Made by a program: the position numbers and the translations under genes. Under the pieces are notes generated by a model that did not search any database, was not told the origin of the DNA, and was given only the letters and a program-made list of their open reading frames with translations. This document shows, one piece after another, positions 357-33,543 of a stretch of DNA of 33,543 bases. This DNA is from an uncultured Chitinophagaceae bacterium (GTDB taxonomy: Bacteria; Bacteroidota; Bacteroidia; Chitinophagales; Chitinophagaceae). The number at the start of each line of letters is the position of its first letter. Within the stretch, counting starts at the first letter, position 1. The stretch spans positions 19,298 to 52,840 of the forward strand of contig CAZTOP010000008.1 in assembly GCA_964615145.1 (NCBI GenBank), given 5' to 3'.

Positions 357-437
357 TAAAATATCGGTTTATACAAGTATCCAATTACCCTCTCTCCTAC
401 TTTATCCTTATTTTTGCCAATTACAATAAATAAATTA

Positions 438-1691
438 ATGGCTAAGAAAGAGATAATACGATGTTCGTTTTGCGGTAAACCCAGAGATGAAGTTAAAATT
501 TTAATTGCTGGTCATCAGGGACACATATGTGAGGGTTGCGTTGAACACGCTAAGGAAATTGTTGAACAGGAATTAAACTTGGTATTAAACGAAAACCCTT
601 CATACAAGGCTTCATCAAAAAAATTAGTAGTAAAAAAACCTAAAGAAATTAAAACATTCTTAGACCAATATATTATTGGGCAAGATGATGCAAAAAAGAT
701 ACTGGCTGTAGCTGTGTATAACCACTATAAAAGAATTGTACAAAAACCGAAAGCTACTGATGATGATGTTGAAATAGAAAAAAGCAATATTATTATGGTG
801 GGCGAAACAGGTACCGGAAAAACATTATTGGCTAAAACAATTGCCAAAATGTTGAATGTTCCTTTTTGTATTGTTGATGCTACAGTATTTACAGAAGCTG
901 GATATGTGGGCGAAGATGTGGAAAGTATGCTAACTCGCTTATTACAAAATTGCAACTATGATGTAGAAGCTGCACAACAGGGCATTGTATTTATTGATGA
1001 AATTGATAAAATTGCACGCAGACAAGATAATCCTTCAATAACCAGAGATGTAAGTGGCGAAGGGGTGCAACAAGGGTTATTAAAAATGCTGGAAGGAACA
1101 GATGTATTAGTACCACCTCAGGGCGGACGTAAACATCCCGACCAAAAAATGATTCCGGTAAACACTTCTAATATTTTATTTATTTGTGGTGGTGCTTTCG
1201 ATGGTATTAATCAAATTATTGCTCGAAGAATAAATACTAACGCCATTGGTTTTAATGTTAACAAAGAATTACAAAACTATCAACGCCAGAATTTATTGCA
1301 ATTTGTAAATGCACAGGATATAAAAGCTTTTGGAATTATACCTGAGTTATTGGGTCGTTTACCAATCATTACATACCTGAACCCATTAGATGCTGAAACA
1401 TTAAAGAGCATTATCACCGAACCTAAAAATTCTTTGGTAAAACAATACACCAAACTATTCGATTTAGAAAATATTAAACTGGAAATAGAACCGGCTGTAC
1501 TTGACTTTATGGTAGAAAAAGCATTGGAATATAAACTAGGTGCAAGAGGCTTGCGTAGCATATTTGAAACTATTTTAACTGAAGCAATGTTTGAAATGCC
1601 TGGTACAGAAGCTACTTCTTTTTTACTAACTGCTGAATATGCAAAAAGTATGTTTGAGAAAAGTAAAATGAGTATGCTGAAGGTAGCATAA
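438..1691 (+). CDS. clpX: ATP-dependent Clp protease ATP-binding subunit ClpX
   Basis: N-terminal C4 zinc ribbon (CSFCGK...CEGC), Walker A GETGTGKT, Walker B FIDEIDK, and 'LGARGLRS' near the C-terminus. I place the start at the ATG at 438 ([14 protein letters not shown]) rather than the TTG at 414. A TATTTTTG-like Bacteroidetes -7 box lies at 409-416. Confidence 0.95.
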
Positions 1692-1772
1692 TCATTTACG
1701 ATTTTTAGATTTTAGATGTACGATTTTTTAAATTAAGCTAGACTAACTAATAAACTTTTAAATAAAACAAAA

Positions 1773-1925
1773 ATGAACGAACTAATTGACCGCCTTGTTA
1801 AAGAAGCTAATATAACACCTGAACAAGCTGTAAAAGCTATTGAAGCTTTATCGGGCTATGTAAAAGAAAAATTCCCAATGTTAGGTGGGGCTGTAGATAA
1901 TTTATTTGGTGGTGGACAAAGCTAA
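1773..1925 (+). CDS. Small hypothetical protein (50 aa). It is not in the ORF track because it is under 60 aa.
   Basis: Clean ATG-to-TAA ORF reading MNELIDRLVKEANITPEQAVKAIEALSGYVKEKFPMLGGAVDNLFGGGQS. It has an amphipathic helix followed by a Gly-rich tail and a balanced, non-AT-driven composition. It overlaps the NUDIX gene stop by 4 bp on the opposite strand. Confidence 0.4.
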   Translation: MNELIDRLVKEANITPEQAVKAIEALSGYVKEKFPMLGGAVDNLFGGGQS

Positions 1926-2476
1926 ATCGCTTTCTCTTTCAGCAACATCAATTCCAGCTTTTGCAATGCTGCAACACTAATTGAATCGGTAATCACATTC
2001 TTATCAACCATATCAAAAACTTCCTGTAAAGGGAGTTTTTTTATTTGCAATTGTTCTGTGTCTTCGGGTTGTGCAGTTTGCTGTTGTAAGCCTTTGGCTA
2101 TATATACCATACTCAATTCATCACTTACCGAATTAGATAAATGTAAGGTAAGTATTTGTTGCCACTCGGTAGCTACTAATCCAGTTTCTTCCAGCAATTC
2201 TCTTTTAGCTGCAACCAATGGTTCTTCATGTAATGGACAACCTCCTTCCGGTATTTCCCAACTATACATATCTAGTGGAAACCTGTGCTGTCCCACAAGC
2301 CAAGTGTTACCATTATTATCTATGGGTATTACACCTATAGCAATATTTTTAAAATGTACTTTACCATATATACCTGCTCCACCATTTGGATTAATTACAT
2401 TACAATGATGCAAACTAATCCAATTGTTATTATATACCACTTCTTCGTCTATAATTTTCCAAGTATTATGTTCCAT
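1922..2476 (-). CDS. NUDIX hydrolase
   Basis: Nudix box GGCPLHEEPLVAAKRELLEETGL (Gx5Ex7REUxEExGU). I place the start at the internal Met (MEHNTWKII) at 2476 so that it abuts the upstream gene. The longer ORF running to 2545 would overlap that neighbour. Confidence 0.85.
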   Translation of the reverse strand: MEHNTWKIIDEEVVYNNNWISLHHCNVINPNGGAGIYGKVHFKNIAIGVIPIDNNGNTWLVGQHRFPLDMYSWEIPEGGCPLHEEPLVAAKRELLEETGLVATEWQQILTLHLSNSVSDELSMVYIAKGLQQQTAQPEDTEQLQIKKLPLQEVFDMVDKNVITDSISVAALQKLELMLLKEKAI

Positions 2477-2477
2477 A

Positions 2478-2807
2478 TTATTTTTTAAAAGCAAAGTAAA
2501 CAGCACCAACAATAAACAAAAAACTAATAATATATTTTGTTTCAAAAGGCTCTTTTAAATATATTACTGCAAAAATGGCAAATACAACTAAAGTAATAAT
2601 TTCTTGTGTAATTTTTAATTGAAAAGCATTAAATCCATTACCATATCCTATACGGTTGGCAGGCACCATAAAACAGTATTCAAAAAAAGCCAATGCCCAT
2701 CCAATTAAAACAGCTTTCCATAAAGGCATTCCTTTATCCTTCAAATGTCCGTACCATGCAAAGGTCATAAATATGTTAGAGAGCACCAGTAGGCTAATTG
2801 TTTTCAT
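2478..2807 (-). CDS. Small DMT-superfamily/DUF486-like membrane protein
   Basis: 109 aa with 3-4 predicted TM helices. The segments 'FAWYGHLK' and 'PANRIGY' are typical of DUF486/EamA-like small transporters. Confidence 0.65.
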   Translation of the reverse strand: MKTISLLVLSNIFMTFAWYGHLKDKGMPLWKAVLIGWALAFFEYCFMVPANRIGYGNGFNAFQLKITQEIITLVVFAIFAVIYLKEPFETKYIISFLFIVGAVYFAFKK

Positions 2808-2916
2808 TTAAAAATATTTTCCGCAAATTAACACAAAGTATCAAATTAAATTTTGTAATGTTGCCTATTGATTATTACCACGATTGACTGCCATAAACTC
2901 TATTAAACATTCAAGT

Positions 2917-3207
2917 ATGAAAAAATATCAGGCAATCATTAAGTTTACGATGAACGATGATTTTATGACTCTTATTCCACCTCATCGTACCTATATCAAC
3001 TATCTTATCAATAAAAACATTATTGATATGTATGCTGTAAGTATGGAGTCGCAAACAGTTTGGATTACTTTTAATGCAGGCAATAAAACGCAGGTAGATG
3101 AGTATTTAATTAAATCGCCTTTATACAAATACTGGACATACACTATTGAAGAGTTATTTGTGTACGATAGTCAGCAATACCGATTACCACAGTTGCAATT
3201 GAATTAA
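2917..3207 (+). CDS. Hypothetical small alpha/beta protein
   Basis: Compact ORF starting at the ATG at 2917 (MKKYQAIIKF...). No recognisable catalytic motif. Confidence 0.45.
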   Translation: MKKYQAIIKFTMNDDFMTLIPPHRTYINYLINKNIIDMYAVSMESQTVWITFNAGNKTQVDEYLIKSPLYKYWTYTIEELFVYDSQQYRLPQLQLN

Positions 3208-3410
3208 ATAATTTTTGATAGGCTGGTTTACAAATATTCCATCATTATTGGTTTTATGTAACCAAACTTTGAGCTGCTTAGTGTTAAAAAAACTACAACA
3301 CTACACCCCTTTCTGAAAAAGAGGCATTGTTTGCCAGACTGAGTTTGTCTAAAGATAATAAAAGCCACACTTACAAAATGAACCACTCCGTAACATTTAA
3401 TGATAATAAA

Positions 3411-3450
3411 TAAAAAGTCCCTAATATTATTAAAAATATCAAGGACTTTA
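3411..3450 (-). terminator. Possible rho-independent terminator for the minus-strand gene at 3485..4114
   Basis: Stem aaagtcc/ggacttt with a large (about 22 nt) AT loop. The minus-strand read continues into a T-rich tract. Confidence 0.35.
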
Positions 3451-3484
3451 TTTGCCTAACAATACCCACCCTGCATAAAACAAA

Positions 3485-4114
3485 CTAATTGCTTACGTAT
3501 TTAGTTATTGGTGCAGCCCACACTAAATCTTCATTATCTCTGCCTTTATGAGCAGCACTAAACACATAAGCCACACCCGCAGGCAAACCTTTAATAACAA
3601 CACTATGCCCATTCACTGGTTTCAATGTCCACAAGTTAATATCACTTGAAGCATTGGTAGCTGGTGTGTAAGCAAACACAGTACCGTGATCGGTTACTGG
3701 CGACTTATCTACCGACACATTCATACTGCCATTATTGCCATTTTCGACCCTAAGGTTAGCAGGTATAGGTTGTGGCAAATACTTGGGCTGCTCCGACAAA
3801 GGAATGCCACTACTTTGCAGCTTAGCCAAATCTCCATCTGCCTGTTGGTTAACCACTACAGCTACTGCACCAAAACTGTTGAGCAGGGTTTCCCTTGCAG
3901 CATTTTTAGCAGTTACTGCAGCTTTGCCACCAGTAGCTAAAGCAGCTAGACTATCGTGATAGGCATTGCTATCATCTTCAAAGTCTTTGAGTTGATCATC
4001 AACAAAAGTGAAGTTGGCATTGCCCTTTAAACCAGTTACAGCAGCTGCTGCTGCAACATCCAAATCAGCGTCTGTTTTATCGCTGAAATCCGTAATAACT
4101 TTGTACTTACGCAT
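3485..4114 (-). CDS. Hypothetical Ala/Gly/Val-rich protein. It is locally GC-rich and may be a secreted or structural beta-rich domain.
   Basis: 209-aa ORF. It has runs of AAAAAV and GGKAAVTAKNAARE. Its GC content is clearly higher than that of all neighbouring genes. Confidence 0.55.
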   Translation of the reverse strand: MRKYKVITDFSDKTDADLDVAAAAAVTGLKGNANFTFVDDQLKDFEDDSNAYHDSLAALATGGKAAVTAKNAARETLLNSFGAVAVVVNQQADGDLAKLQSSGIPLSEQPKYLPQPIPANLRVENGNNGSMNVSVDKSPVTDHGTVFAYTPATNASSDINLWTLKPVNGHSVVIKGLPAGVAYVFSAAHKGRDNEDLVWAAPITKYVSN

Positions 4115-4295
4115 AAAAATTGTTTTAAAAATGAATTAATTAAAATACCAACCTAAAGCTCTTAAAACATTTTTAAATTGCTATATAACAAAATGTTAAA
4201 AATCAATACATACTATTAAAATAATGGTACTTTTTATAAAATTTAACAGAATTTTTACAGTTTTACTTACAACAGATACTTAATAAGTTATAAGG

Positions 4296-4556
4296 GATAG
4301 CAAAAAAGTTGTAACCAAAATATTTTCCGCTACAGCGGAAATGAAAAAAGTTATAGCCGAAATAAAATCTGCTATAACCGAAAGCAAAAAAGTTATAGGG
4401 GTAATGATTTCCGCTATAGCGGAAATTGAAAAAGGGATAGCAGAATGGGAATTTGGTGTAAGGGAAAGGGGAAAAGGGATAGAAGAAATGAAATCTGTTA
4501 TAGGGGAAAGGGAAAAAGTTGTAAGGGAAAGAGAAAGAGTTATATAGGATAGAACT
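4296..4556. repeat. Array of about 12-13 tandem direct repeats with a 21-bp period and GYTATAGSS/GGGATAGMA palindromic cores
   Basis: Units read off directly: gttgtaacc..., gctacagcg..., gttatagcc..., gctataacc..., gttataggg..., gctatagcg..., gggatagca..., ggtgtaagg..., gggatagaa..., gttataggg..., gttgtaagg..., gttatatagg. The segment ttccgctatagcggaa is a perfect 16-bp palindrome. One frame reads as a heptad-repeat 68-aa ORF (4341..4547). Confidence 0.85.
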
Positions 4557-4624
4557 TTGCAGGCTATGAATTGTAAATACTAGATATAGAAAAACAAAAA
4601 AGTACTAACAAAATTTGTTCAAAT

Positions 4625-4632
4625 TAATTTTG
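4625..4632 (+). promoter_or_regulatory. Candidate Bacteroidetes sigma-A -7 element (TAATTTTG) upstream of the methyltransferase gene. It is followed by direct repeats ttgtccgt/gtccg.
   Basis: TAnnTTTG octamer 39 bp upstream of the ATG at 4671. No clean -33 TTTG was found at canonical spacing. Confidence 0.3.
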
Positions 4633-4670
4633 TCCGTAAGTTTGTCCGTGTCCGCAAAAAAGTACGTAAA

Positions 4671-6896
4671 ATGATTAAAGTAAGATTCTATCTCGACAAA
4701 GCAGATAAAAATAGTTTTTCTCCTATACATCTTCGTGTAACCAAAAATGGTGTGCAAATCAAAGTCGCAACAGGTGAGAAAATAAAAAAGAAAGACTGGG
4801 ACAACACAAATCAATTGGTTAAAGACACAGAGTATAAGCATATATCAATCAATAAGTTTCTCAATTTTTTAAAATCAGAAACTGAGAAGTACATATCATC
4901 AACACCGCATACAAAACATACTGACAAAAAAATAAAAGACAAAATTCAAGAGTTAGTGAACAGTAGAAAAGCAAATACGGATGTTCAAATAGTATGTGAA
5001 GATGGAGCGAAATATGAAACAAAACAATCAATAACATTCGTTGACTTATTTGCAGGTGCAGGTGGATTTAGCGAAGGTTTTTTGCAAGCAGAAACAGATA
5101 TTCGATATTACGATTTTTTGCTAGGAAGCGATATCAATGAAAATTGTGAGCTAACTCACCTTGCACGTTATAATTATCAATTAGGACTTGATGCAGCATT
5201 TATAAGACAAGATATTACAGAACCTGATTTCTTGGATAATTTATTGAAAAAGATTAACTGCAAACAAGTTGATGTTGTCTGTGGAGGACCACCCTGCCAA
5301 AGTTTTAGTTTGGCAGGAAGAAGAAAGAAGTTTGATAAGAAAGATGATTTATTCGCACACTACCTAAAAGTAATTAGGCAGTTAAGACCTAAATATTTTG
5401 TAATGGAAAATGTGAAAGGAATTCTTACCAAAGAAGATGGCAAGATTAAAGAAATGATTTTGCAAGAAATTAGGTCAATAGTTGATTTAAAGGAATTTCA
5501 TCAGCTAATAACATTTGTTGCTCAACTAAAAAAGGTTGAGAAAAAACAACCTTTCATTTTAGATTGTTATACACTAAGATTACAATTTGAAACAGCAACA
5601 GAGAAACAACTCGAAAACTCCAGAGAGACTTATATACAGATTCTTGAAAACAAGTTTAGACTTTTAACGCCAAAAATCGTTGATTACAAAACAAGCAAAA
5701 CAGATAAGAATATAAGTACGATTCGACACGGATTTAATTTGCTTAAACGCAGCAAGGAATTGGCTTACATAAGAAAAAAAGTCATTCTTGAAAAGTCATT
5801 TTGTGATTTAGATAATGATTTTTTTACAGATAGCTTCGATGGATTTTTAACTTCAATAGAAAGTGAATCTATTATTGAAACTATTCATAATGCTTTTACA
5901 AACTTAAAGCCATCAGAAGACTATATTGCTGAAATAAATGACATAATTAAATCACTTGAAATTTATAATTACTCTTTTGATGAGTGTGTGCAAGGGCTAA
6001 AAACATTTGTTGAAAAGGCTAATAGATCAAATGAGTTTAATGAAATATTATCGCATATTAGATTATATAATATTGAACAACCTTTTGTTGCTCTTGCATC
6101 TAACTATGGTGTGCCACAAAATAGAGAAAGAGTTCTATTTATTGGTTGTCGAAAAGACCAAAAACTAATTACTGATGTACCACCTACAGTTACAGACAGA
6201 GAAAAGGTAACAGTTTTTGAAGCCTTATATGATTTGGATTTTGTTGGAAACGATGAAGAAAAGTATCATTACGAGAAAATAGATTTAAAAGCCAAATACA
6301 ATGGTTCAACAGAAAAGATGAAAGCCTTAATACAGAAAAGAAATATTGATGGAAAACCGAATAATAGTAAAGGTTTAACTTATGCAGACTGGAGCAAAAA
6401 AGGAAGATTAAATGAAAGATTTGCAAATGCAAAGAACCCCTTTTATGTAAGGAATTTTGAAGATTTAGAAAATAACCTTTCACACATTGTTGCTCCATTA
6501 CACAATCATAAAACAAGTAAACAAAACGACGATGTTGTAAAACGTTTAAATGTCATTTTAAATACTGGTGATTATGATTTAGCAAAAAAAGAATTGAAAG
6601 CAATCGGTTTAGATTCAGAAAAAAGAAGTTACAATGTATTAAAAGCAGATTCGCAAAGCCCAACAGTAATGACAATTCCAGATGATTATATTCACTTTTC
6701 AAGTCCAAGGGCTTTAACAGTTAGAGAAATGGCAAGATTGCAGTCATTTGATGATTCATTTGTATTTCAAGGTAAACGCTCAACTGGTGGCAATAAACGT
6801 AAATTTGAAGTACCGCAATTTACATTGGTTGGTAATGCTGTTCCTCCCTTAATGGCAAGGGCTGTGGCACTAGAAATATTAAAAAATATAGATTAG
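4671..6896 (+). CDS. DNA (cytosine-5)-methyltransferase. It has an N-terminal integrase-type Arm DNA-binding domain and a long insertion between motifs VI and VIII.
   Basis: Motif I FVDLFAGAGGFSEGF (aa 122-135), motif IV GGPPCQSFS (aa 205-213), motif VI FVMENVKG (aa 243-250), motif VIII QNRERVLFIG (aa 483-492), motif X LVGNAVPPLMA near the C-terminus. The N-terminal 55 aa (VRFYLDKADKNSFSPIHLRVTKNGVQIKVATGEKIKKKDWDNTNQLVK) match the Arm-DBD pattern of Bacteroidetes tyrosine integrases. Confidence 0.9.
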   Translation: MIKVRFYLDKADKNSFSPIHLRVTKNGVQIKVATGEKIKKKDWDNTNQLVKDTEYKHISINKFLNFLKSETEKYISSTPHTKHTDKKIKDKIQELVNSRKANTDVQIVCEDGAKYETKQSITFVDLFAGAGGFSEGFLQAETDIRYYDFLLGSDINENCELTHLARYNYQLGLDAAFIRQDITEPDFLDNLLKKINCKQVDVVCGGPPCQSFSLAGRRKKFDKKDDLFAHYLKVIRQLRPKYFVMENVKGILTKEDGKIKEMILQEIRSIVDLKEFHQLITFVAQLKKVEKKQPFILDCYTLRLQFETATEKQLENSRETYIQILENKFRLLTPKIVDYKTSKTDKNISTIRHGFNLLKRSKELAYIRKKVILEKSFCDLDNDFFTDSFDGFLTSIESESIIETIHNAFTNLKPSEDYIAEINDIIKSLEIYNYSFDECVQGLKTFVEKANRSNEFNEILSHIRLYNIEQPFVALASNYGVPQNRERVLFIGCRKDQKLITDVPPTVTDREKVTVFEALYDLDFVGNDEEKYHYEKIDLKAKYNGSTEKMKALIQKRNIDGKPNNSKGLTYADWSKKGRLNERFANAKNPFYVRNFEDLENNLSHIVAPLHNHKTSKQNDDVVKRLNVILNTGDYDLAKKELKAIGLDSEKRSYNVLKADSQSPTVMTIPDDYIHFSSPRALTVREMARLQSFDDSFVFQGKRSTGGNKRKFEVPQFTLVGNAVPPLMARAVALEILKNID

Positions 6897-6902
6897 TTTT
6901 TA

Positions 6903-8087
6903 ATGAGACAGCTATCCGAAATAGAAATCAGTCGTATAAAATTACTAACAGAAAACTCTGTAGAATTAACTTTAATTGAACCAACTGCAACAGGTTTGGA
7001 AAAGTCAATTATGGATGCCACAGGTTCTGTCCGTACTTATTTAAAATCAAAATCTATTCACGACTTTGAAAATCAAAAGCAAGGACAAGAATATAAAATA
7101 CAAATAAAATCGCATTTAATTTTTGAAGATGCACTAGTAAATTCTATCGCTTCATTATATCGCCCTAATACAAAAAAAGGAGACCCAAGAATTTGGTTTA
7201 AAGGATTAACAAGTTTTGCGAAAGCAAATGATATACTAGCAATTGTTGAATATCAAAAAGTGCTGTATGTTTTAAATATTACACAACTTGATTTGAAGAA
7301 ATTATTAGAAGCAAGAATCAACAACCCATTTAGTGAACTTATTAATGAAATCAATCAAAACACGAATGCTATTGCTGAAGAATTATTATTTAAACTAAAA
7401 GAGATTTCTGCAAGAGGCCTCGTTCCTGCTATGTTAAAAGCAGATACAGCAATAGGAAGAACACTCGAAACTTTACTAAACATTGATATTAATTCATCAA
7501 AAAAACCAGATTACAAGGGAATAGAATTAAAATCGTATCGTGATAAAAAGGGTAATAGAAAAAATCTATTCGCTCAAGTACCTGATTGGAATTTAAGTAA
7601 ATTTAGTAGTTCGGCTGAAATATTAAATGCATTTGGTTACAGTAGAGGTGAAGATTTTAAGTTGTATTGCACTGTATCAACTTTAGTGAGAAATTCACAA
7701 GGATTAAAACTAAAATTGAATGCTGAAATAAATCATTTAGTGGAAAATTCCGATAAATCAACAATTGGAGACTTTGTTGTTTGGGGCTTGGAAACTCTGC
7801 ATAAACGACTGCTTGAAAAACATAATGAAACATTTTGGATAGCTGCTGATTCAAAGATTGTTGATGGCAAAGAATATTTTCAGTATAAAAAAGTTGAACA
7901 CACCAAAAAGCCAATTGTTTCTCAGTTTGATATTCTATTGGAACAAGGAATTATTACATTAGATCACTTAATAAAAAGGAAACCGAGTGGAAGTGTTGTA
8001 GAGAAAGGACCACTTTTTAAAATAAAACCAAATGCTCTGGATTTATTATTTCCTCCTAGTCAATCATATTCATTAATTCAAAAATAA
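6903..8087 (+). CDS. Putative Type II restriction endonuclease (PD-(D/E)xK), cognate to the upstream methyltransferase
   Basis: It starts 6 bp after the methyltransferase stop on the same strand. It has a 'GRTLETLL...KKPDYKGIELKSYRD' segment (aa 185-213) that fits a G-x-x-L-E ... PD-x4-E-x-K nuclease core of the kind seen in MutH/Sau3AI-like and EcoRII/NgoMIV-like enzymes. This resemblance is from memory and unverified. The N-terminal roughly 130 aa could be a separate DNA-recognition domain. Confidence 0.5.
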   Translation: MRQLSEIEISRIKLLTENSVELTLIEPTATGLEKSIMDATGSVRTYLKSKSIHDFENQKQGQEYKIQIKSHLIFEDALVNSIASLYRPNTKKGDPRIWFKGLTSFAKANDILAIVEYQKVLYVLNITQLDLKKLLEARINNPFSELINEINQNTNAIAEELLFKLKEISARGLVPAMLKADTAIGRTLETLLNIDINSSKKPDYKGIELKSYRDKKGNRKNLFAQVPDWNLSKFSSSAEILNAFGYSRGEDFKLYCTVSTLVRNSQGLKLKLNAEINHLVENSDKSTIGDFVVWGLETLHKRLLEKHNETFWIAADSKIVDGKEYFQYKKVEHTKKPIVSQFDILLEQGIITLDHLIKRKPSGSVVEKGPLFKIKPNALDLLFPPSQSYSLIQK

Positions 8088-8099
8088 AACTAAAACAAA

Positions 8100-8339
8100 A
8101 TGACACAGTTTAACTCACAAGTAAGCAGCCTTTCACCCAATGGTTCATTTGTTTTATCTCAATCAGATAATCTTGTTTGTAGTGTTGAAAGAAGTAGTGA
8201 TGGCAAAAAACTTCGTTTTGTAAGAACCTTTGCCAATGGCAGTTTTGTAGTGGTTAAAGAAACAGATTACACATTGTATCATTACATTAAACCGAATGAA
8301 CTAAATAGTATTAAAAATACTAAGGCTGTGTTTAGATAA
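8100..8339 (+). CDS. Small hypothetical protein (79 aa), immediately after the R-M pair
   Basis: ATG ORF 12 bp after the endonuclease stop. No motif recognised. Confidence 0.35.
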   Translation: MTQFNSQVSSLSPNGSFVLSQSDNLVCSVERSSDGKKLRFVRTFANGSFVVVKETDYTLYHYIKPNELNSIKNTKAVFR

Positions 8340-8486
8340 TACTTGATTGTATACTTACTACTTTTTAAAATTCCATACTAAGCCCAAAAAGATTTTTGAA
8401 CCCTTCAAGGTCTATTGCATTAACTTGTTAGACACTACTAAAAAATATATAAAATTAAAAAAAACTTCGAGGCATCATTTCCACCA

Positions 8487-9032
8487 ATGAAAATAACTAT
8501 TCGTAACCTGCTCCCGGTTCTTATTCTTATACTTGGCTTTTTTGCTATTAAAAAAGAGTTCCGTGCAACTGATACTGGTTTGTTTTACCAACTTAACTAT
8601 ATACCTTTTGGTCTGTTGATTCTTTTTACACTTATTGCAATCTCTTTAGATAAGCTTTTTTATAAAGCTTATAGAACCAAAAAACAATTTATTACTTCTA
8701 CCATTGGCATTTTGTTGTGTTGTATTGTTGTTTATAAAATTTACCAAAGGCATACAATAGATAAGTCAAATACCTTGTACACTTTCTCAACTAAAACTAC
8801 ATTAAATGAATACTGGGAAATACAATTAAAAGAAAATGAGAAGATGGTACTTGCCAATATAGATATGTTAGGTCAAACACTTTACTATGGCAAGTACACC
8901 CAAAAAGGAGATACGATTACCCTAACCGATATAATGAAAAACCGATACCTGAAACAAACACCTGTTACAGGTATCATCCATCAAAATAAAATTTACTTTA
9001 AAGGCTTAGATACTTTGGGTTTAGTTCAATAA
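8487..9032 (+). CDS. Hypothetical membrane protein (3 TM helices, N-terminal)
   Basis: The N-terminal half is hydrophobic (LLPVLILILGFFAI, FGLLILFTLIAISL, IGILLCCIVVYKI) and the C-terminal half is soluble. Confidence 0.5.
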   Translation: MKITIRNLLPVLILILGFFAIKKEFRATDTGLFYQLNYIPFGLLILFTLIAISLDKLFYKAYRTKKQFITSTIGILLCCIVVYKIYQRHTIDKSNTLYTFSTKTTLNEYWEIQLKENEKMVLANIDMLGQTLYYGKYTQKGDTITLTDIMKNRYLKQTPVTGIIHQNKIYFKGLDTLGLVQ

Positions 9033-9102
9033 TATTATCATTGTAATTAAAAATACCTTTAATATTTTTGAGACGCAACTGTACTAATTTTTTTTATATA
9101 TC

Positions 9103-9248
9103 GTCCCTATGGGACTTTTGCTAGTTTTTGATGTGATGGCTAACCATATTTTATGCCTACGGCATAGTGCAACTTAAAACCAATAGCTCCACTAGGAGCA
9201 AAATATTGGTAGAAAGAAATAGCATTAGGTATTAGAGTTCCGTAGGAA
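9103..9248. repeat. Cluster of four GC-clamped mini-hairpins (5-bp stems, 3-4 nt loops) in a 318-bp intergenic gap
   Basis: gtcccTATgggac (9103-9115), atgccTACggcat (9154-9166), gctccACTAggagc (9186-9199), gttccGTAggaac (9236-9248). Confidence 0.45.
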
Positions 9249-9350
9249 CGAGATATTATTTAGCTTTTATCATATTTTAAATAGCGGTGTTTATAAACCC
9301 TAATAGGCAGGCATTGGTATAAAAAATTTTATAATAAATATAAATACACT

Positions 9351-9638
9351 ATGGCATTAATATTTACAGGTTCAACCGAATGTGCTATTTGTAAAAAGGT
9401 GTTGCAAGATGGAGAGGCTATAGCTACATTGCCTGCTATTGCTAATACACAGCATCCGTTGTATTCTTTTTTTGATGGTGGTTTCCATCAATCCTGCTTC
9501 GATAACTGGGAGCATAAAGCAACCATTCAACAAATTATTGAAGAGGAAAGAGCAGCCTATGAAAATTCAGATTACTACAAAGAAATGGTTGCTAAGTATG
9601 GTGAGCCAAAATATAAAAATACAACACCAGATAAATAG
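9351..9638 (+). CDS. Small hypothetical Cys/His-containing protein (possible metal-binding)
   Basis: 95-aa ORF with CAICKK...HQSCFDNWEH. No catalytic motif. Confidence 0.45.
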   Translation: MALIFTGSTECAICKKVLQDGEAIATLPAIANTQHPLYSFFDGGFHQSCFDNWEHKATIQQIIEEERAAYENSDYYKEMVAKYGEPKYKNTTPDK

Positions 9639-9900
9639 ACTTCTTCGGCAATTCAAAGAACATCTAATAGAGGCGTCTTTGCGAGGTTCTTGCCGAAGCA
9701 ATCTCCAGCATAAAATAAATTGCCCACTTTCAAGGAGACTGCTTCGTTCCTCGCAGTGACGTACACCATTATATTTTTTTAGAATTTTTGAAAAAGTCTC
9801 TAATGAATATGGGTTACATAGCTTGTTTTTTTACGAAGCACAAAACAATCTTCGCTATGTTTGAGATTGCTTCGGGCAAGAACCTTCGCAATGACTTTTT
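9639..9900. repeat. Roughly 250-bp element bounded by about 25-33-bp near-perfect inverted repeats, with internal GC-rich sub-hairpins. It could be a MITE-like element or a structured RNA.
   Basis: Left arm aggcgtctttgcgaggttcttgccgaagcaatctc (9671-9705). Right arm gagattgcttcgggcaagaaccttcgcaatgacttt (9863-9897), reverse-complementary with two 1-nt indels. Additional pairs: cttcggcaa(9643-9651)/ttgccgaag(9690-9698), actgc...gcagt (9738-9757), gcttcgt(9741-9747)/acgaagc(9833-9839). Confidence 0.55.
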
Positions 9901-10109
9901 GTTCCTAAAGTTTACCTATCCAATCATCAGTGTAAATCAGTAGCATCCGTGCTATCTGTGTTGCAACAAATATTCTGTTAATTACCTCACAAAATATCTT
10001 TTCCCCAATTTATCCTAATGGTTTGTTAGTCAAATTACAGACCCTTAGTTTTACAGATACTATTTTTAACCACAACATTTAATTAATCAATTAATAAACT
10101 TTTATTCAA

Positions 10110-10976
10110 ATGGAATTAGTTATCAAAAATCTTAGCAAAACATACAGCAATGGGGTTAAGGCTTTAAATAATATTAACTTAAATATTAGTAAAGGAATGT
10201 TTGGTTTGCTTGGTCCTAATGGTGCTGGTAAAAGTACTTTAATGAGAACTATTGCAGCTTTGCAAAATGCAGATAGTGGCAGTATTTTTTTAGGAGATAT
10301 TGATGTAATAAATCAAAAAAATGAACTAAGAAAAGTGTTGGGTTATTTGCCTCAGGATTTTGGTTTTTATCCAAAAGTTTCGGCACTTGACCTGTTAAAT
10401 CATTTTGCAGTGCTAAAAGGTATCAGTAATAAAACAGAACGTAAACAAATGGTAGATGCCTTATTACTGCAAACTAATTTGTATGAAGTAAGAAAAAGAA
10501 ACGTGAGTGATTACAGTGGTGGTATGCGTCAGCGTTTTGGTATTGCACAGGCTTTATTGGGTAATCCTAAACTGATTATTGTGGATGAACCCACAGCAGG
10601 ATTAGACCCACAAGAAAGAAACAGGTTTCATAATATTTTAAGCGAAATTGGTGAACAGGTAATTGTAATTCTATCTACCCATATTGTAGATGATGTTAAA
10701 ACATTGTGTAACCAAATGGTGGTAATGAACAGAGGTACTATTTTACTGGAAGGCACACCAAAACAAGCAGTGGAAGCCATACAGGGCAAAATATGGACAG
10801 CATCTATCAACAAAGAAGATTTAACCAGTTACAAAAAACAGTTCAACGTAATTTCTCAATACATTAACGAAGGGAAAATGACGGTTCACGTTTTTGCCAA
10901 CTCACAACCATCGGCCGAGTTTGTTGCTACTGAAGCAGACTTAGAAGATGTTTACTTTTCGCATATTGGAAAGTAA
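10110..10976 (+). CDS. ABC transporter ATP-binding protein
   Basis: Walker A GPNGAGKST, signature SGGMRQR, Walker B LIIVDEPTAGLD, H-loop STH. Confidence 0.93.
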   Translation: MELVIKNLSKTYSNGVKALNNINLNISKGMFGLLGPNGAGKSTLMRTIAALQNADSGSIFLGDIDVINQKNELRKVLGYLPQDFGFYPKVSALDLLNHFAVLKGISNKTERKQMVDALLLQTNLYEVRKRNVSDYSGGMRQRFGIAQALLGNPKLIIVDEPTAGLDPQERNRFHNILSEIGEQVIVILSTHIVDDVKTLCNQMVVMNRGTILLEGTPKQAVEAIQGKIWTASINKEDLTSYKKQFNVISQYINEGKMTVHVFANSQPSAEFVATEADLEDVYFSHIGK

Positions 10977-11075
10977 TGGTTAATTGTTAGTGGTAAATTA
11001 TTAATTAAGAACCACCTGTTAACAACAAACAAATAACAATTAACAACTATTCACTGATCATTAACTGCTGATTTT

Positions 11076-14000
11076 ATGTTTAAAGAGATATTTTTATTTG
11101 AATTAAAACAAGGCTTAAAAAAGCCCTCTACCTATATATACTTTAGTATTTTATTTTTATTATCAATGATGCTTGGTTTAGGTGGTACAGGTGCATTGTT
11201 TACTACCAGAAATGATAGTAATCTTATTATGAATTCGGCATCGGTAATATCTGGTATTTTATTAGTAAGCAGCAGTTCTATATTTAGTTTAATGACTAGT
11301 GTTTTATTGATATCTATCATGGCAAATGCTATACAAAAAGATTATGAGTATAATACACATCCACTTTTTTTTACCAAGCCTATTACTAAATCAAGTTATT
11401 TTTTTGGACGATTTTTAAGTGTGTTTCTTTTAGCAGTATTTGTATTTAGTGGCTTACTAATTGGATATTATTTAGGCATTATACACGCTGCGGGTACAAG
11501 CTATGTAGGAGCGTTTGAGTTTATTAATTTTATACAACCTTTCTTAATTTTTACCTTACCCAATGTATTTTTATTTGGCGTTATTTTCTTTTCGCTTACT
11601 ACTTTTTTGCGTAATACTATGATGGCTTATATAGTAGCCATTATTTTAATGGTATTGCAAATAGCTACTGGTACTATAAGCTCAGATATTGATAATAAAA
11701 TGCTGGTAGCTGTATTAGAACCAACTGGCAGCAAGGCTTTGGGCTTAATAACAGAATACTGGAGCCCTGCCGAAAGAAATGCACGGCTCATTCCACTATC
11801 GGGTGCTTTGTTATACAACAGACTACTTTGGTTGGGGATTGCATTGCTTACAACTGCCATTAGTTATTATGGCTTCAATTTTTCGCAATTTTTACAACCT
11901 TTTCAGTTATTTAAAAGAAAAAAAGCAGAGGAACAACCCTCGCAAGTGTTATTAAATAGCTTAAGTGAATTGCCAACAGTGCATCAAGATTTTAGTGTCA
12001 AAAATGCTTTACAACAAGCTTGGTATTTAGGTTGTTTTGAGTTTAAAAAATTAAATCGTACTGTATTTTTTATAGTAATGTGCTTGTTAAGTATTGGCAC
12101 TATGCTTTTAATTGTAAAGTATATGGATGCTATGTACGATTCGCCAACTTATATGGTTACATATAAAGTACTGGAAGAGGCAGTGGGCTCTTTGGATTTA
12201 TATGCTATGATTTTTATAATTTTTTACAGTGGCACCATTATTTGGCGAGATAGAGAAACTAAAATGGTAGAACTGGTTGGAGCCACTCCTATTAGTAACG
12301 GTTCATTGTTTTTATCAAAATGGATTGGTTTAGAGCTTGGATTTATTTTGCTTTCGGTTATAGGTGCTTTTTGTGGTATATTGATTCAATTATATAATGG
12401 TTTTTATCATATCGATTTTTCACAATATCTGGTTTTTATATTAAAAGGTATTGCATCGAGTAGTGTACTGATTACATTTTGTCTTGCAGTACAGGTGTAT
12501 TCTCCTAACAAGTTTTTAGGTTTCTTTTTTGTGCTGATTCCAATTGTAATTATGCCCATAATATTCAGTTTACTGGAATGGGATGTTTTTTTATTAGACT
12601 TTAATAGCAGTGGCGATTCAAGCGAGTATTCTGATATGAACGGTTATGGAACTACCTTTATTGAATGGCCTGTTTTTAGAACTTACTGGACAAGTATTGC
12701 CGTTTTTCTGGCTATGTTAGCCATTTTGGTTTATGCAAGAGGAAAGGAAAAATCGCTTGTTGGCAGATTTAGATTATCGAAATACTTTTTTGGAGCAAAG
12801 TATATGCTTTATATGCTTGCCAGCTTTATCGTTATTGCAGTTTTAGGGTATTACATTTATTATGAAAAAAGAATTGTAAAAACTCATATTTCAGCAAAAA
12901 CAGCAGAAAAAAACAGGGCTGAATTTGAAAAAAAATATAAAAAATACGAAACCTTATTACAACCAAGAATTGTAGCCACAGTAGTAAACCTTGATATGTT
13001 TACCAAAACAAAACAACTACATGTTGCTGGTGTTTACACTTTGGTTAATAAGCATGCTGTTGCCATTGATAGCTTGTATATTGATTATATAGGTGGTAAA
13101 AAAAGTTCTTACAATTTTTCTAAACTTAATCCAACTGTGGGTTATAAAGAGGTATTGAAAGATGAGGAAAATGGCATTAAAATTTTAAAACTTGAGCATC
13201 CTTTACAACCCAATGACTCTATTATTTTCGAATTTGATGTTTGGTATAAACCGCTTAGTTATTTCGATAAAGTAAATTCACCCATTCAAGCTAATGGCAC
13301 ATTCATTAACAATGAATTTTTCCCAAGTTTTGGATATAATGAAGGAGATGAGCTCAGCGAAAACAGGGCAAGAAAAGAATATAACCTGAAGCCAAAGCCA
13401 CGAATGGCAAAGGTTACAGACTCGGCAGCAAGAATGAACAACTACATTTCAAGCGATGCTGACTGGATAAGATTTGAAACAACGGTTAGTACAGATGAAG
13501 GACAAATTGCAATAGCACCTGGTTATTTGCAAAAAGAGTGGATAAAAGATGGCAGACATTATTACAGTTATAAAATGGATAGCCCAATTCTTAATTTCTA
13601 TTCTTTTTTAAGTGCAGCCTACCAAGTAAAAAAAGATAGCTGGAAGGGAATTAGTTTAGAAATTTATTATAACAAGGGTCACGAGTATAATATAGATAGA
13701 ATGATGAAAGGAATGAAAAAGGCTTTGGAATATTATACCACCAATTTTGGTCCTTATCAGCATCGACAAGTAAGAATTATTGAATTTCCAAGGTATCAAT
13801 CATTTGCTCAATCATTCCCTAATACCATTCCTTTCTCTGAATCTATAGGTTTTATCACAAAAGTTGATGATGAAGATCCATTAAGTATAGATGTTCCGTT
13901 TTATGTTACAGCACACGAGGTAGCTCATCAATGGTGGGCACATCAAGTAATTGGTGGCAATGTACAAGGTAGTGTTTTAATGAGTGAAACCATGAGTCAG

Positions 14001-30570: not shown

Positions 30571-33543
30571 ATGAAAAAAAAGTTTACTCAATTTTTTTTG
30601 CTTTTATTTACCCTGATTGTTTTTAGTAATGTTTTAAAAGCACAAAACTTGCTGTATAATGGCGATTTTGAATATGGAGGTAGTGGAAACGGATTTATTT
30701 CAGATGACCCAAGTTATTTTTATTTAACAAACCCAAATGGTATTTCGTTCGCCGGCAATTGGGCTATTGTCAATAATCCACAAGCTGTAAATACTAATTT
30801 CATTTCAGGAACAGACCATAGTGGTACAGGTAATATGATGGTTGTAGATGCTACTACAAATGGTGGTGCAAAACGTTTTTGGAAAGCAGGAAACAATGGC
30901 AATGGTATTATTGGTTTTATTACTGGTACATCTTATACATTTAGTTATTGGATTAAATCAGTTTCAAACGATCCTTCAAGAGCAAATATTGGCATTTCGT
31001 TTAATAACGTTTCAAATGTTGTGCTAGCAAGTGGCAATGCTACAGCACCGCTGGCAAGTGATGGATGGCAGCAAGTAAAATACACTTTTACTGCCAATGG
31101 AAATACTGTTAATATAGAGTTATATGATAATAATACAGATGCTATTGGAAATGATTTTGCGATTGATGATATTGAATTATATGGTCCACCACAACCGTTT
31201 TCATTTTCATATTCAAGTGTAAATCCTACTTGCTCAAATGTAGCAGATGGTTCAATTGTGGCTTATGGTACAGGAGGTACTGCACCATATTTATATAGTT
31301 TTGATGGAGGTGCTTTTACAAGCACAAATGTTCTAAATGGTTTAACAACTTCAAACCACACTATCACAGTTCAAGATGCCGCTTTAAATACATTAACAAG
31401 TCCAGTAATTCATATTATTTCACCAACAGATGTTTTAAATGCAACTACGAATAAAGATTCTATTTGTTCTGGTCATTCTGCAACTTTAAATGCTACAGGT
31501 GGTGGCAATAATGGTTACACTTGGGTTGCTACACCAGCAGATCCAACCCTTTCTGTAAATGCAACAAGCCCGGTTGTTAGCCCTTTAGTTCCTACTATCT
31601 ACGTAGTATCTACTTCCAGCACTTATGCCACCAATCTTGTTTTTAATGGCGATTTTGAATTAGGCAATAATGGTTTTTCTACTGATTATGTTTTTAAAAC
31701 TTCAAATACTTCTGGTGCACAAAGAACTTATGGTATTACTGATAGTGCCAGTAAATTTTATTCTGCATTTTCAAATTGTGGAGATCATACAACTGGCAGT
31801 GGAAAAATGTTTGTTTGTGATGGTTCAACTAATCCTACCAACAGAATATGGAGTCAAACAGTTCCGGTAAAGCCTGGCAGTACGTATACATTTACGTATT
31901 GGATTCAATCTGTAACATCTCCTAGTCCTGCCCAAATTGAAACAAGAATAAATAATGTTGTTTTACCAGCAGGAACCAATGCAAATCCTTACACAGCACC
32001 AGCTACAAATACTTGTAACAATTGGCAGAAAGTGTCTTACTCCTGGACTGCAGGTGTTGGAGTAACTTCTGCTGACTTGTCAATTTATGATAAAAATTTC
32101 GTTGACATTGGAAACGATTTTGCATTAGATGATATTTCGTTTATCACCTTAACAACAACCTGCACTTTGGTTGATAGTGTTAAAGTATTTGTAACTACAA
32201 CAACATCGTCCATTACAGATTTTAGTTATATACCCAATGCTATTTGTGTGAGTAGTACAACAAATCCAACATTAAATACAGTACCCAGCTTTACAACCGG
32301 AGGCACTTATACCGCCACACCAGCGGGATTGAAAATAGATTCTTTAACTGGTGCAATTGATGTTGCTAATAGTTTACCAAATACTTATAATGTTACTTAT
32401 TTTGCTCCAATTGTGGGCTGTAGATTAAGTGGTAGTAGTAGCACAACAATTACTATTAGACCATTGGTGGCAACACCAACAGCTAGTGTTACAGTGCAAC
32501 CAACTTGTACCACACCAACAGGAACTATTGTTGTTAGTAACCCTCTAGCGACTAATTATTATTTTAGTGTAGATTCTGGATTAAATTATCAAAGCAGTGC
32601 AACATTTACAGGACTTGCACCAAATAGCACCCATTACATTGTTGTAAAAGATACCAATGCTGGTGGATGTATTTCTGATACTATTAGTCTTACAATAAAT
32701 CCTGTCACTCCGCCTCCACCAACACCAACTGGCAGTGTAAGTTTTCAACCAACTTGTGCCGTTGCCACAGGAACAATCATTGTATCAAGTCCACATAGTA
32801 CAAACTATGTTTATTCTATTAATGGAACTACTTATCAAGCTGATACAACATTTGCTGGACTTACAGCTAATACAACATATCCTGTTATAGTTAAAGATGT
32901 AACTACAGGTTGTATTTCATCTGCATTGAATTTAACAGTTTATCCTTTTATACCTGTAATTGCAACAACAAACACTCAAACATTGAGTAGTTGTAAGGAT
33001 ATTATTTATAACAGTATTACTTATTCTTCATCAACGATACTAAAAGACACTGTAAAATCTTTTCAAGGTTGTGATAGTGTTTACAATGTTGTTAACATTA
33101 ATATTAATCCTATTACTCCAGCAACAAACACACAAACATTCAGCAGTTGTAAGGATATTTTTTATAACAGCATCACTTATTCTTCATCAACCATACTAAA
33201 AGACACCATAAAATCTTTCCAAGGTTGTGATAGTATTTACAATATTGTCAACATTAATATCAATCCTATTACTCCAACAACAAACACTCAAACATTGAGT
33301 AGTTGTAAGGATATTATTTACAACAGCATCAGTTATTCTTCATCAACGATACTAAAAGACACTGTAAAATCTTTCCAAGGTTGTGATAGTATTTACAATA
33401 TTATAAACATCAATATCAATCCAATTACTACTACAACTAATACTCAAACATTCAGCAGTTGTAAGGATATTGTTTATAATGGTATGGCTTATTCTTCATC
33501 AACGATACTAAAAGACACTGTAAAATCTTTCCAAGGTTGTGAT
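30571..33543 (+). CDS. Large secreted surface protein, 3'-partial. It has two CBM_4_9-like modules, SprB-type repeats, and tandem 51-53-aa Cys-containing repeats. It is probably a T9SS adhesin.
   Basis: The ATG is at 30571. I read the frame through to the window end without a stop codon. Signal peptide MKKKFTQFFLLLFTLIVFSNVLKAQ. Two modules run from N[LV]x[YF]NGDFE to GNDFAxDDI. SprB-like repeats (PTCSNVADGSIVAYGTGGTAPYLYSF, VQPTCTTPTGTIVVS...). The track ORFs 30720..30902(-) and 31670..31870(+) lie inside it and are artefacts. Confidence 0.8.
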   Translation, partial: MKKKFTQFFLLLFTLIVFSNVLKAQNLLYNGDFEYGGSGNGFISDDPSYFYLTNPNGISFAGNWAIVNNPQAVNTNFISGTDHSGTGNMMVVDATTNGGAKRFWKAGNNGNGIIGFITGTSYTFSYWIKSVSNDPSRANIGISFNNVSNVVLASGNATAPLASDGWQQVKYTFTANGNTVNIELYDNNTDAIGNDFAIDDIELYGPPQPFSFSYSSVNPTCSNVADGSIVAYGTGGTAPYLYSFDGGAFTSTNVLNGLTTSNHTITVQDAALNTLTSPVIHIISPTDVLNATTNKDSICSGHSATLNATGGGNNGYTWVATPADPTLSVNATSPVVSPLVPTIYVVSTSSTYATNLVFNGDFELGNNGFSTDYVFKTSNTSGAQRTYGITDSASKFYSAFSNCGDHTTGSGKMFVCDGSTNPTNRIWSQTVPVKPGSTYTFTYWIQSVTSPSPAQIETRINNVVLPAGTNANPYTAPATNTCNNWQKVSYSWTAGVGVTSADLSIYDKNFVDIGNDFALDDISFITLTTTCTLVDSVKVFVTTTTSSITDFSYIPNAICVSSTTNPTLNTVPSFTTGGTYTATPAGLKIDSLTGAIDVANSLPNTYNVTYFAPIVGCRLSGSSSTTITIRPLVATPTASVTVQPTCTTPTGTIVVSNPLATNYYFSVDSGLNYQSSATFTGLAPNSTHYIVVKDTNAGGCISDTISLTINPVTPPPPTPTGSVSFQPTCAVATGTIIVSSPHSTNYVYSINGTTYQADTTFAGLTANTTYPVIVKDVTTGCISSALNLTVYPFIPVIATTNTQTLSSCKDIIYNSITYSSSTILKDTVKSFQGCDSVYNVVNININPITPATNTQTFSSCKDIFYNSITYSSSTILKDTIKSFQGCDSIYNIVNININPITPTTNTQTLSSCKDIIYNSISYSSSTILKDTVKSFQGCDSIYNIINININPITTTTNTQTFSSCKDIVYNGMAYSSSTILKDTVKSFQGCD
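32962..33543 (+). repeat. Near-identical tandem coding repeats (159/156/153 bp, at least 3.6 copies) that run off the window end
   Basis: Repeat unit T(T)NTQT[LF]SSCKDI[IF]YNSI[TS]YSSSTILKDT[VI]KSFQGCDS[VI]YN[IV][VI]NININPITP. DNA identity between copies is roughly 90% or higher. Unit starts are at 32962, 33121, 33277 and 33430. Confidence 0.9.

Follow-up and report, generated by a model that had tools for sequence, protein, structure and literature searches.

A 21-bp tandem repeat array lies upstream of genes for an unannotated FN3 protein family in Bacteroidota

Short direct repeats in bacterial DNA have been described in partition, replication, and promoter elements. Plasmid partition systems of types II and III use repeat arrays that serve as centromere and operator, such as parC of R1, parC of pSK41, and tubC of pBtoxis. 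Theta-replicating plasmids, including R6K, RK2, P1, and pSC101, carry replication iterons with units of 17 to 22 bp. The contingency genes hmw1A and hmw2A of Haemophilus influenzae are preceded by 7-bp promoter-region repeats of variable copy number, and the plc promoter of Clostridium perfringens contains intrinsically curved upstream DNA with phased A-tracts. In this study, we analyzed a tandem array of 21-bp units in a 33,543-nucleotide stretch of DNA (the window) from an uncultured Chitinophagaceae bacterium (contig CAZTOP010000008.1). The array occupies part of the 556 bp that separate two divergent genes, of which the left-hand one, p209, encodes a protein with a C-terminal FN3 domain and the right-hand one, M, encodes a DNA methyltransferase.

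Homologous loci used for comparison are labeled with L-numbers and proteins with P-numbers. Like parC and tubC, the arrays described here consist of ~4 to 10 or more head-to-tail, helically phased units directly upstream of a gene, and in both cases systems with a common architecture have sequences of their own; in parC and tubC, protein dimers sit on one face of the DNA. Unlike these partition elements, our array is chromosomal, has no partition nucleoside triphosphatase (NTPase) and no ribbon-helix-helix or helix-turn-helix centromere-binding protein, and adjoins a gene for an acidic helical bundle fused to FN3. Unit length, a direct tandem layout with an ~21- to 22-bp period, and an adjoining AT-rich stretch are shared with theta-plasmid iterons, whereas an initiator gene, an enrichment of DnaA boxes, and a replicon are missing, units are more numerous, and their turnover is faster. 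In architecture, the array resembles partition operator/centromere arrays and iterons, but it does not show the features that define them. With the hmw1A and hmw2A repeats it has in common a position upstream of a single gene and a copy number that differs between very close strains; its unit is longer, at two helical turns, so that phase is kept, and its presence is conserved family-wide. As in the plc promoter, periodic A-rich runs occur upstream, and a wedge model predicts extra curvature in most arrays. However, the arrays are ~200 to 270 bp long, those of L013, L092, L109, and L119 have no A-tracts, and the prediction for the window is weak. A search of the full-text literature found no description of such arrays or of their pairing with p209, and they are not covered in "Satellites in the prokaryote world" (PMC6749651).

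Tandem Repeats Finder (TRF) detected periods of 21, 42, and 84 between positions 4289 and 4544. Identity at a lag of 21 was 0.56; at the neighboring lags of 20 and 22, it was 0.29 and 0.32, respectively. In 5,000 shuffles, lag-21 identity was 0.317 ± 0.027, giving the array a z value of 8.9, and no other 273-nt stretch in the 33.5-kb window approached its periodicity. With 13 units in register, the 21-bp repeat array described in the original prediction is real. The units abut directly. A CRISPR array was rejected, as there are no unique spacers between units and no cas domains in the window. Each unit (consensus AAAAAGTTATAGCGGAAAGGA on the + strand) begins its repeat pattern with a palindrome-like core of 8 bp (GYTATARC), after which comes a linker rich in purines; G6, T10, and A11 of the core and the GAAA motif are invariant in the window. 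The + strand of the array is 71% purine, and its G+C content is 34%, versus 17% in the adjoining spacer. Matches to the unit motif occurred six times inside the array and once elsewhere in the window (with three mismatches; 0.33 expected).

A super-period of 42 bp, with a lag-42 identity of 0.66, matches the alternation of GTT and GCT cores, which had been proposed for the array but holds for units 2 to 7 only. The cores after unit 7 read GGG, GGT, GGG, GTT, GTT, and GTT. These later units had been called degenerated, and they are; the reasons are their position at the array edge and, from 4477 onward, their location in a segment that varies between strains. Core arms occur in both orientations, which gives rise to the perfect palindromes TTTCCGCTATAGCGGAAA in the window and AAAAAGGTTAACCTTTTT in L085. 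The palindrome previously placed at 4411 to 4426 exists and is perfect (TTCCGCTATAGCGGAA), but it lies two positions away, at 4409 to 4424, within the 20-bp palindrome of unit 7 (Table 1). A near-twin of the latter, 95% complementary, was found in unit 3 at 4324 to 4342; inside it, the second predicted palindrome, TTCCGCTACAGCGGAA at 4325 to 4340, is near-perfect, with one mismatch. Adjacent cores that are reverse complements of each other were confirmed in GTTATAGC (4350) and GCTATAAC (4371).

The link between the array and the left-hand gene had been overlooked. A tandem array was present upstream of the start codon at all 25 examined loci encoding p209 homologues, at a distance of ~40 to 590 nt. 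Its period was exactly 21 bp at 24 of them and 22 bp, in a degenerate array, at L115. The p209-associated arrays have ~4 to 18 units, mostly 8 to 14, and the loci with a period of 21 are the window, L083, L085, L086, L088, L090, L092, L013, L093 to L110, L116, L117, and L119. The closest relative, L083, belongs to the same species as the window; its p209 is 99% identical, and its flanks show 98.8% nucleotide identity over 9.6 kb. Among the close homologues (L083 and L084, 99% identity; L086 and L087, 72%; L085, 68%), every array has 11 to 14 units and lies as far from the p209 start codon as in the window, with the 21-nt register preserved. At 42 to 51% identity (L088, L090, and L092), the 21-bp arrays are built from an entirely different unit sequence. 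Further homologues conform as well: the remote one in L013 (E = 1e-12) has 17 to 18 units, all 15 metagenome loci with complete upstream DNA carry 21-bp arrays of ~4 to 12 units, and of the remote members retrieved with a second profile, L116, L117, and L119 have a period of 21, with L115 being the degenerate case. In five further distant members, heptad-periodic "N-terminal extensions" proved to be translated 7-codon arrays. Array-bearing homologues reach down to ~21 to 34% pairwise identity, with profile E values of 1e-19. As a background, six 21-bp arrays were counted in unrelated flanking DNA (~617 kb by estimate).

Every p209 locus examined has an array, and no other neighboring gene is conserved. 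Judged from this comparison of sequences, the array belongs to the divergent p209 gene and not to the restriction-modification genes on its right. Searches of the flanks by tblastn and hidden Markov models (HMMs), together with gene tables, revealed no conserved partner gene beside p209.

Other 21-bp arrays, of unrelated sequence and with no recognizable p209, were observed at L025 (4059 to 4303), L071 (10011 to 10188), L003 (4696 to 4837), L015 (913 to 1195), L043 (2786 to 2975), and L074 (1126 to 1272). Beyond two of the p209-less arrays, at 105 to 240 nt, lie genes for small helical proteins of 225 and 272 aa. The genes beside the p209-less arrays of L015, L025, L056, L071, and L003 showed no significant similarity to p209; the L071 protein contains a weak p209-like motif (TAKNAAR). 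A candidate array at L054 was rejected as part of a YtxH coding gene. Among arrays of at least four copies in 845 kb, 21 was the commonest period above 7.

In the AlphaFold model of p209 (predicted local distance difference test score [pLDDT], 91), an FN3 domain comes after a three-helix bundle; structural searches returned matches to the FN3 domain only. The protein belongs to no Pfam, NCBIfam, PHROG, or PADLOC family, its N-terminal domain has no Pfam family, and no source searched names the family, which comprises ~2,280 clusters at 50% identity, with nearly all members being 200 to 215 aa long. The window itself is a piece of Bacteroidota chromosome (32% G+C) that includes genes for ClpX, NUDIX, DMT_6, an ABC transporter, PEPCK, and ProRS, as well as for a protein with a Por secretion tail.

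Unit sequences are unrelated between lineages. Within the clade formed by the window, L083, L085, and L086, the consensus AAAAAG..TA..CGGAAA with its palindrome-like 8-bp core is kept down to 68% p209 identity (Table 1). The constants across the family are the 21-bp period, the number of units (mostly 8 to 14), and the site just upstream of the start codon. Copy number differs between closely related strains: the window has 13 units and L083 has 11, and L116 and L117, whose proteins are identical, have 9.3 and 13.9. Between the window and L083, the array differs at ~8% of positions, whereas the spacer is almost identical (two substitutions). The differences form multi-base patches by which a unit becomes more like those next to it, for instance, GCTATAACCGAAAGC to GCTATAGCGGAAAGC or GGGATAG to GTTATAG. 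Outer units are the most degenerate ones in all four clade members; such edge degeneration is usual in satellite arrays homogenized by unequal exchange. In the aligned loci, the array demonstrably evolves by unequal exchange and gene conversion.

Directly beyond the array, a conserved noncoding element of ~230 nt (83 to 97% identity) was observed in one sub-clade, in L101 (3506 to 3735), L103, L104, L106, L107, L090, L111, L113, and partly L109, while the array units of these loci differ. Neither an Rfam match nor covariation was found for this element, and it contains no consistent open reading frame (ORF). A different element is conserved between L116 and L119 at the equivalent position.

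The explanation we favor, to which we give an even chance of being correct, is that the array is a cis-acting, helically phased, noncoding DNA element of the p209 upstream region. It would act in cis on DNA to control p209 expression. The array may form a platform of multiple sites on the same face of the helix to which a factor, probably a core-reading dimer, would bind cooperatively; it may also, or instead, provide intrinsically bent upstream DNA. At 24 of 25 loci, the short tandem units measure two helical turns, and a 21-bp unit would let copy number change with helical phase unchanged. A broader proposal, that array and p209 constitute a two-part module widespread in Bacteroidota, with the array required in cis by the FN3 family and also seeding the boundaries of defense slots, is tentative, and we would sooner doubt it than accept it. 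If the pairing is functional, it offers a handle on the unannotated protein family and a clean natural case in which selection holds a repeat period at two helical turns while the sequence drifts.

Several observations weigh against a cis-acting DNA element. No DNA-binding protein is encoded in cis with the array, and p209 itself is acidic (isoelectric point of 5.3; 4.6 for the N-terminal domain). Dyad symmetry of the consensus unit was significant in only ~5 of 16 independent arrays (window, P = 0.7), so a palindrome-reading dimer is not a general rule. Predicted curvature speaks for the element, but weakly: with assumed wedge parameters, 13 of 16 arrays rank in the most-curved quarter relative to permuted controls of the same period (window, 25th percentile; combined Fisher P value of ~3e-4, calculated by hand), and the control destroys A-runs. 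Moreover, in none of 20 loci does a canonical Bacteroidetes -7 box (TAnnTTTG) lie in the interval from the array to the p209 start codon, and the window spacer (4115 to 4280) has none either. The array could be transcribed, and the 230-nt element found beyond it in some lineages would suit an upstream promoter.

These last points lead to the alternative of an array that is transcribed and works at the RNA level, either as a long 5' leader of p209 or as a separate repeat RNA, with the units being hairpins or protein-binding sites. Besides the missing sigma-A -7 box and the conserved distal elements, canonical boxes pointing to p209 just upstream of the array in L100 and L105 are in its favor. 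Several arrays have arms able to form 5- to 8-bp stems with tetraloops, and on the - strand, one unit has the score of a terminator-like hairpin. Against it, among arm mismatches in dyad-symmetric units, 58 were G.U compatible and 71 were A.C on the p209 strand; selection for RNA pairing is thus not indicated for either strand. Hairpins are not formed by most window units, and dyad symmetry is not significant in most arrays. The DNA beyond the array is strain variable in the window clade, and no conserved upstream promoter therefore exists there. A search of Rfam 15 gave no match at E ≤ 1 in window positions 3900 to 4900, related arrays yielded only subthreshold microRNA-precursor matches or weak tRNA-like matches from palindromes, and the distal element showed no covariation. 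Taken together, we regard an RNA-level role as unlikely.

Two RNA calls were noted near other arrays. The array of CCAAAAGGTTTTGG units in L110 (3687 to 3863) scored 30.6 and 32.7 bits with the Rfam tRNA model (gathering score, 29) and was called tRNA-Leu by ARAGORN; these calls are almost certainly false positives from repeated palindromes. A Flavo-1 RNA (RF01705; 42.5 bits, just above the gathering score) was detected on the - strand of L090 at 4416 to 4507, ~1.5 kb from the p209 homologue.

The array could also be mainly a recombination or integration hotspot that captures defense cassettes, with p209 as a mere anchor. Window positions 378 to 4476 and 8482 to 13983 align with L083. The left breakpoint lies inside the array, since this alignment ends at 4476, and the variable slot is bounded on the right by a 181-aa gene at 8487. 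In L083 (reverse complement, 8993 to 11128), 2.1 kb with an SLFN-g3 helicase gene take the place of window positions 4477 to 8481. The slot holds restriction-modification genes in the window, a KAP NTPase in L086 and L087, and M with a different gene in L085; beyond the array of L013, restriction-modification genes are found with a HATPase-like gene (a label read from the N-terminal sequence only). In L056, from an isolate of Arcicella rosea, a 196-bp array segment of GAGATAGC-type units is duplicated as direct repeats (5596 to 5791 and 11309 to 11504; 94% identity) that flank a 5.7-kb block of M, the endonuclease gene R, a 356-aa gene, and a 153-aa helical gene. Furthermore, of 80 M loci, 5 have an unrelated 21-bp array in the 700 nt before M, compared with an estimated ~0.5 expected (Poisson P near 1e-4). 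However, many p209 loci have housekeeping neighbors (aconitase, ribosomal protein genes, and DnaK), the array has no associated recombinase, and homologous exchange at any repeat would give an equal pattern as a side effect. The fixed period and the fixed position relative to p209 would be left unexplained. A primary role in capturing cassettes is improbable. The outer edge of the array is the recombination boundary of a strain-variable defense-gene slot, which we read as a side effect of a recombinogenic repeat.

Complete turnover of the unit sequence between lineages, unstable copy number, degenerate edge units, and changes resembling gene conversion are also what would be seen in a functionless minisatellite inherited beside p209, in which 21 bp is simply the period of the ancestral unit, and no array-binding protein was found. 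In a compact bacterial genome, a neutral repeat should be lost repeatedly, though, and the array was retained at 25 of 25 loci, among homologues as distant as described above. Its period stays at 21, its position just upstream of the start codon is kept, and the unit consensus is conserved within the window clade. We consider a neutral repeat of this kind to have a low probability.

The repeats had originally been described as iterons. Direct 21-bp repeats in ~13 units, the adjoining 166-bp stretch with a G+C content of 17%, and the likeness to theta-plasmid iterons (17 to 22 bp) and parC/tubC operator arrays would suit replication iterons or a partition centromere, whether of a plasmid, of a phage, or of an integrated element. 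In the replication sense, the term was not supported: there is no initiator gene, DnaA boxes are not enriched, the context is chromosomal, and plasmid or phage relatives are lacking. Scans of the neighboring genes with Pfam, NCBIfam, PHROGs, and PADLOC revealed no Rep, ParA, ParM, TubZ, or ParB-like gene; the neighbors in the window are those listed above (ClpX, NUDIX, ABC transporter, PEPCK, and ProRS). No DnaA box with up to one mismatch occurs within 1 kb of the window array, which has its AT-rich spacer, and over 20 loci, four boxes were found when 6.5 were expected. Nor is there a partition operon, as p209 is the only gene to follow the array consistently and downstream neighbors differ between loci. 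Searches of 72,556 plasmids and 50,697 phages by tblastn returned nothing for p209 or for one distant family member, IMG/VR had no match either, and array and p209 occur together in unrelated chromosomal contexts. A replication or partition role is very improbable.

That the array provides arm-type sites for the M protein is close to negligible in probability. M has an N-terminal Arm-DNA-bind_5 domain, and the array lies 118 nt upstream of its start codon. However, M orthologues share only ~75 nt of upstream DNA, with GTCCG repeats of their own, a 21-bp array is missing from 73 of 80 M loci, any that does occur is unrelated in sequence, and the array is kept in L083 and L086, both of which are without M. 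As an upstream element of M, the array was rejected for the same reasons: it lies outside the shared ~75-nt module and is absent from most M loci.

Last, the array might encode a heptad-repeat microprotein. The 68-codon ORF at 4341 to 4547 is present as described, with an open frame, an ATG start, and heptads carrying I or V at position 4, but the reading is scarcely credible, since any stop-free 21-nt unit automatically yields a long ORF, unit variation is not concentrated at third codon positions, the peptide has no Pfam match, and the frame is not kept in relatives. A conserved frame had been named beforehand as the sign of a protein gene. In L083, a C-to-T change creates an in-frame TAA that cuts the ORF to 15 codons, and no + strand ORF of at least 30 aa crosses the array; nothing equivalent is found in L086, and the ORF of L085 starts with TTG in another frame. 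L101 has stops in all six frames inside the array, and no frame is open through the array in the p209 direction in L101, L103, or L107. The initial preference for a DNA-level element over a peptide was borne out by L083, in which copy number differs, cores are kept, and the frame is broken. By these alignments, the ORF is an artifact of the 7-codon period, and the array is noncoding.

Open frames through other arrays, found by gene callers or by a scan for ATG ORFs, appear as "genes" of 110 to 136 aa or as N-terminal extensions of p209 of 60 to 180 aa. Examples are L088 (5554 to 5949), L092 (5562 to 5972), L094 (3542 to 3937), L108 (3655 to 3987), and L110 (3578 to 3976), and among proteins, P0155, P0161, P0288, P0310, and P0314. 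These array-spanning genes and extensions are likely annotation artifacts.

Table 1. Features of the array region and consensus units of the window clade
Feature	Position	Strand	Basis
p209, 209 aa; N-terminal three-helix bundle (residues 14-100) and C-terminal FN3	3485..4114	-	AlphaFold model
AT-rich spacer, array to p209 start codon	4115..4280	-	GC 17%
Tandem array, 13 units x 21 bp, head-to-tail	4281..4553	.	TRF and register layout
68-codon ATG ORF, heptad pattern	4341..4547	+	ORF list; not conserved
Perfect 20-bp palindrome ATTTCCGCTATAGCGGAAAT, unit 7	4407..4426	.	Near-twin in unit 3
Strain-variable segment versus L083: four outer units, M promoter, M, R, 79-aa ORF	4477..8481	.	Alignment
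M promoter: TAATTTTG (4625-4632), TAAGTTTG (4637-4644)	4625..4666	+	Conserved upstream of M
M: Arm-DNA-bind_5 and C5 cytosine methyltransferase, 741 aa	4671-6896	+	Arm domain E = 3.7e-8
R: MvaI/BcnI-family endonuclease	6903-8087	+	Family scan
Consensus unit, window: AAAAAGTTATAGCGGAAAGGA			
Consensus unit, L083: AAAAAGTTATAGCGGAAATGA			
Consensus unit, L085: AAAAAGGATAACCGGAAAAGA			
Consensus unit, L086: AAAAAGGGTAAGCGGAAAGGA			

The two-gene restriction-modification cassette on the right of the array is very widespread and recently mobile. It was observed at 321 confirmed genome loci with 74 to 92% protein identity in many Bacteroidota families, always with unrelated flanks; a few loci are in bins labeled Verrucomicrobiota, Actinomycetes, or a cyanobacterium. 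M alone has thousands of homologues, and 741-aa orthologues at 74 to 92% identity occur in many Bacteroidota families. At 80 orthologous M loci (L003 to L082), flanking genes are unrelated, and the only shared upstream DNA is a module of ~75 nt. In nearly all of these orthologues, this module consists of a TTG / TAAATTTG promoter and three to four overlapping direct TTTGTCCGTAA boxes. The window has direct GTCCG boxes at 4632 to 4636, 4644 to 4648, and 4650 to 4654 and a GTACG variant at 4662 to 4666, which overlap the M promoter. The TTTGTCCGTAA boxes probably serve in autoregulation, as an operator to which the N-terminal Arm domain of M would bind. No description of a fusion of Arm-DNA-bind_5 with a C5 methyltransferase was found in the literature searched. 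Directly after R, a 79-aa ORF (8100 to 8339) without a family match has 53% identical counterparts at the equivalent position in L047 and L074 only.

In practice, such arrays mark the boundary where strains exchange defense cassettes. They also break short-read assemblies, yield spurious genes and false extensions of p209, and can trigger false tRNA calls. Assemblies break in or beside arrays in L001 and L002 (Logan contigs from the same sample as the window) and at many other loci; many contigs with p209 homologues are only 1 to 3 kb long, and many M contigs end 50 to 600 nt upstream of M. A second tandem repeat of the window, at 32963 to 33543, has a 156-bp unit in 3.7 copies (89% identity) and runs off the window end. 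It lies within a long + strand ORF and hence represents a 52-aa protein repeat.

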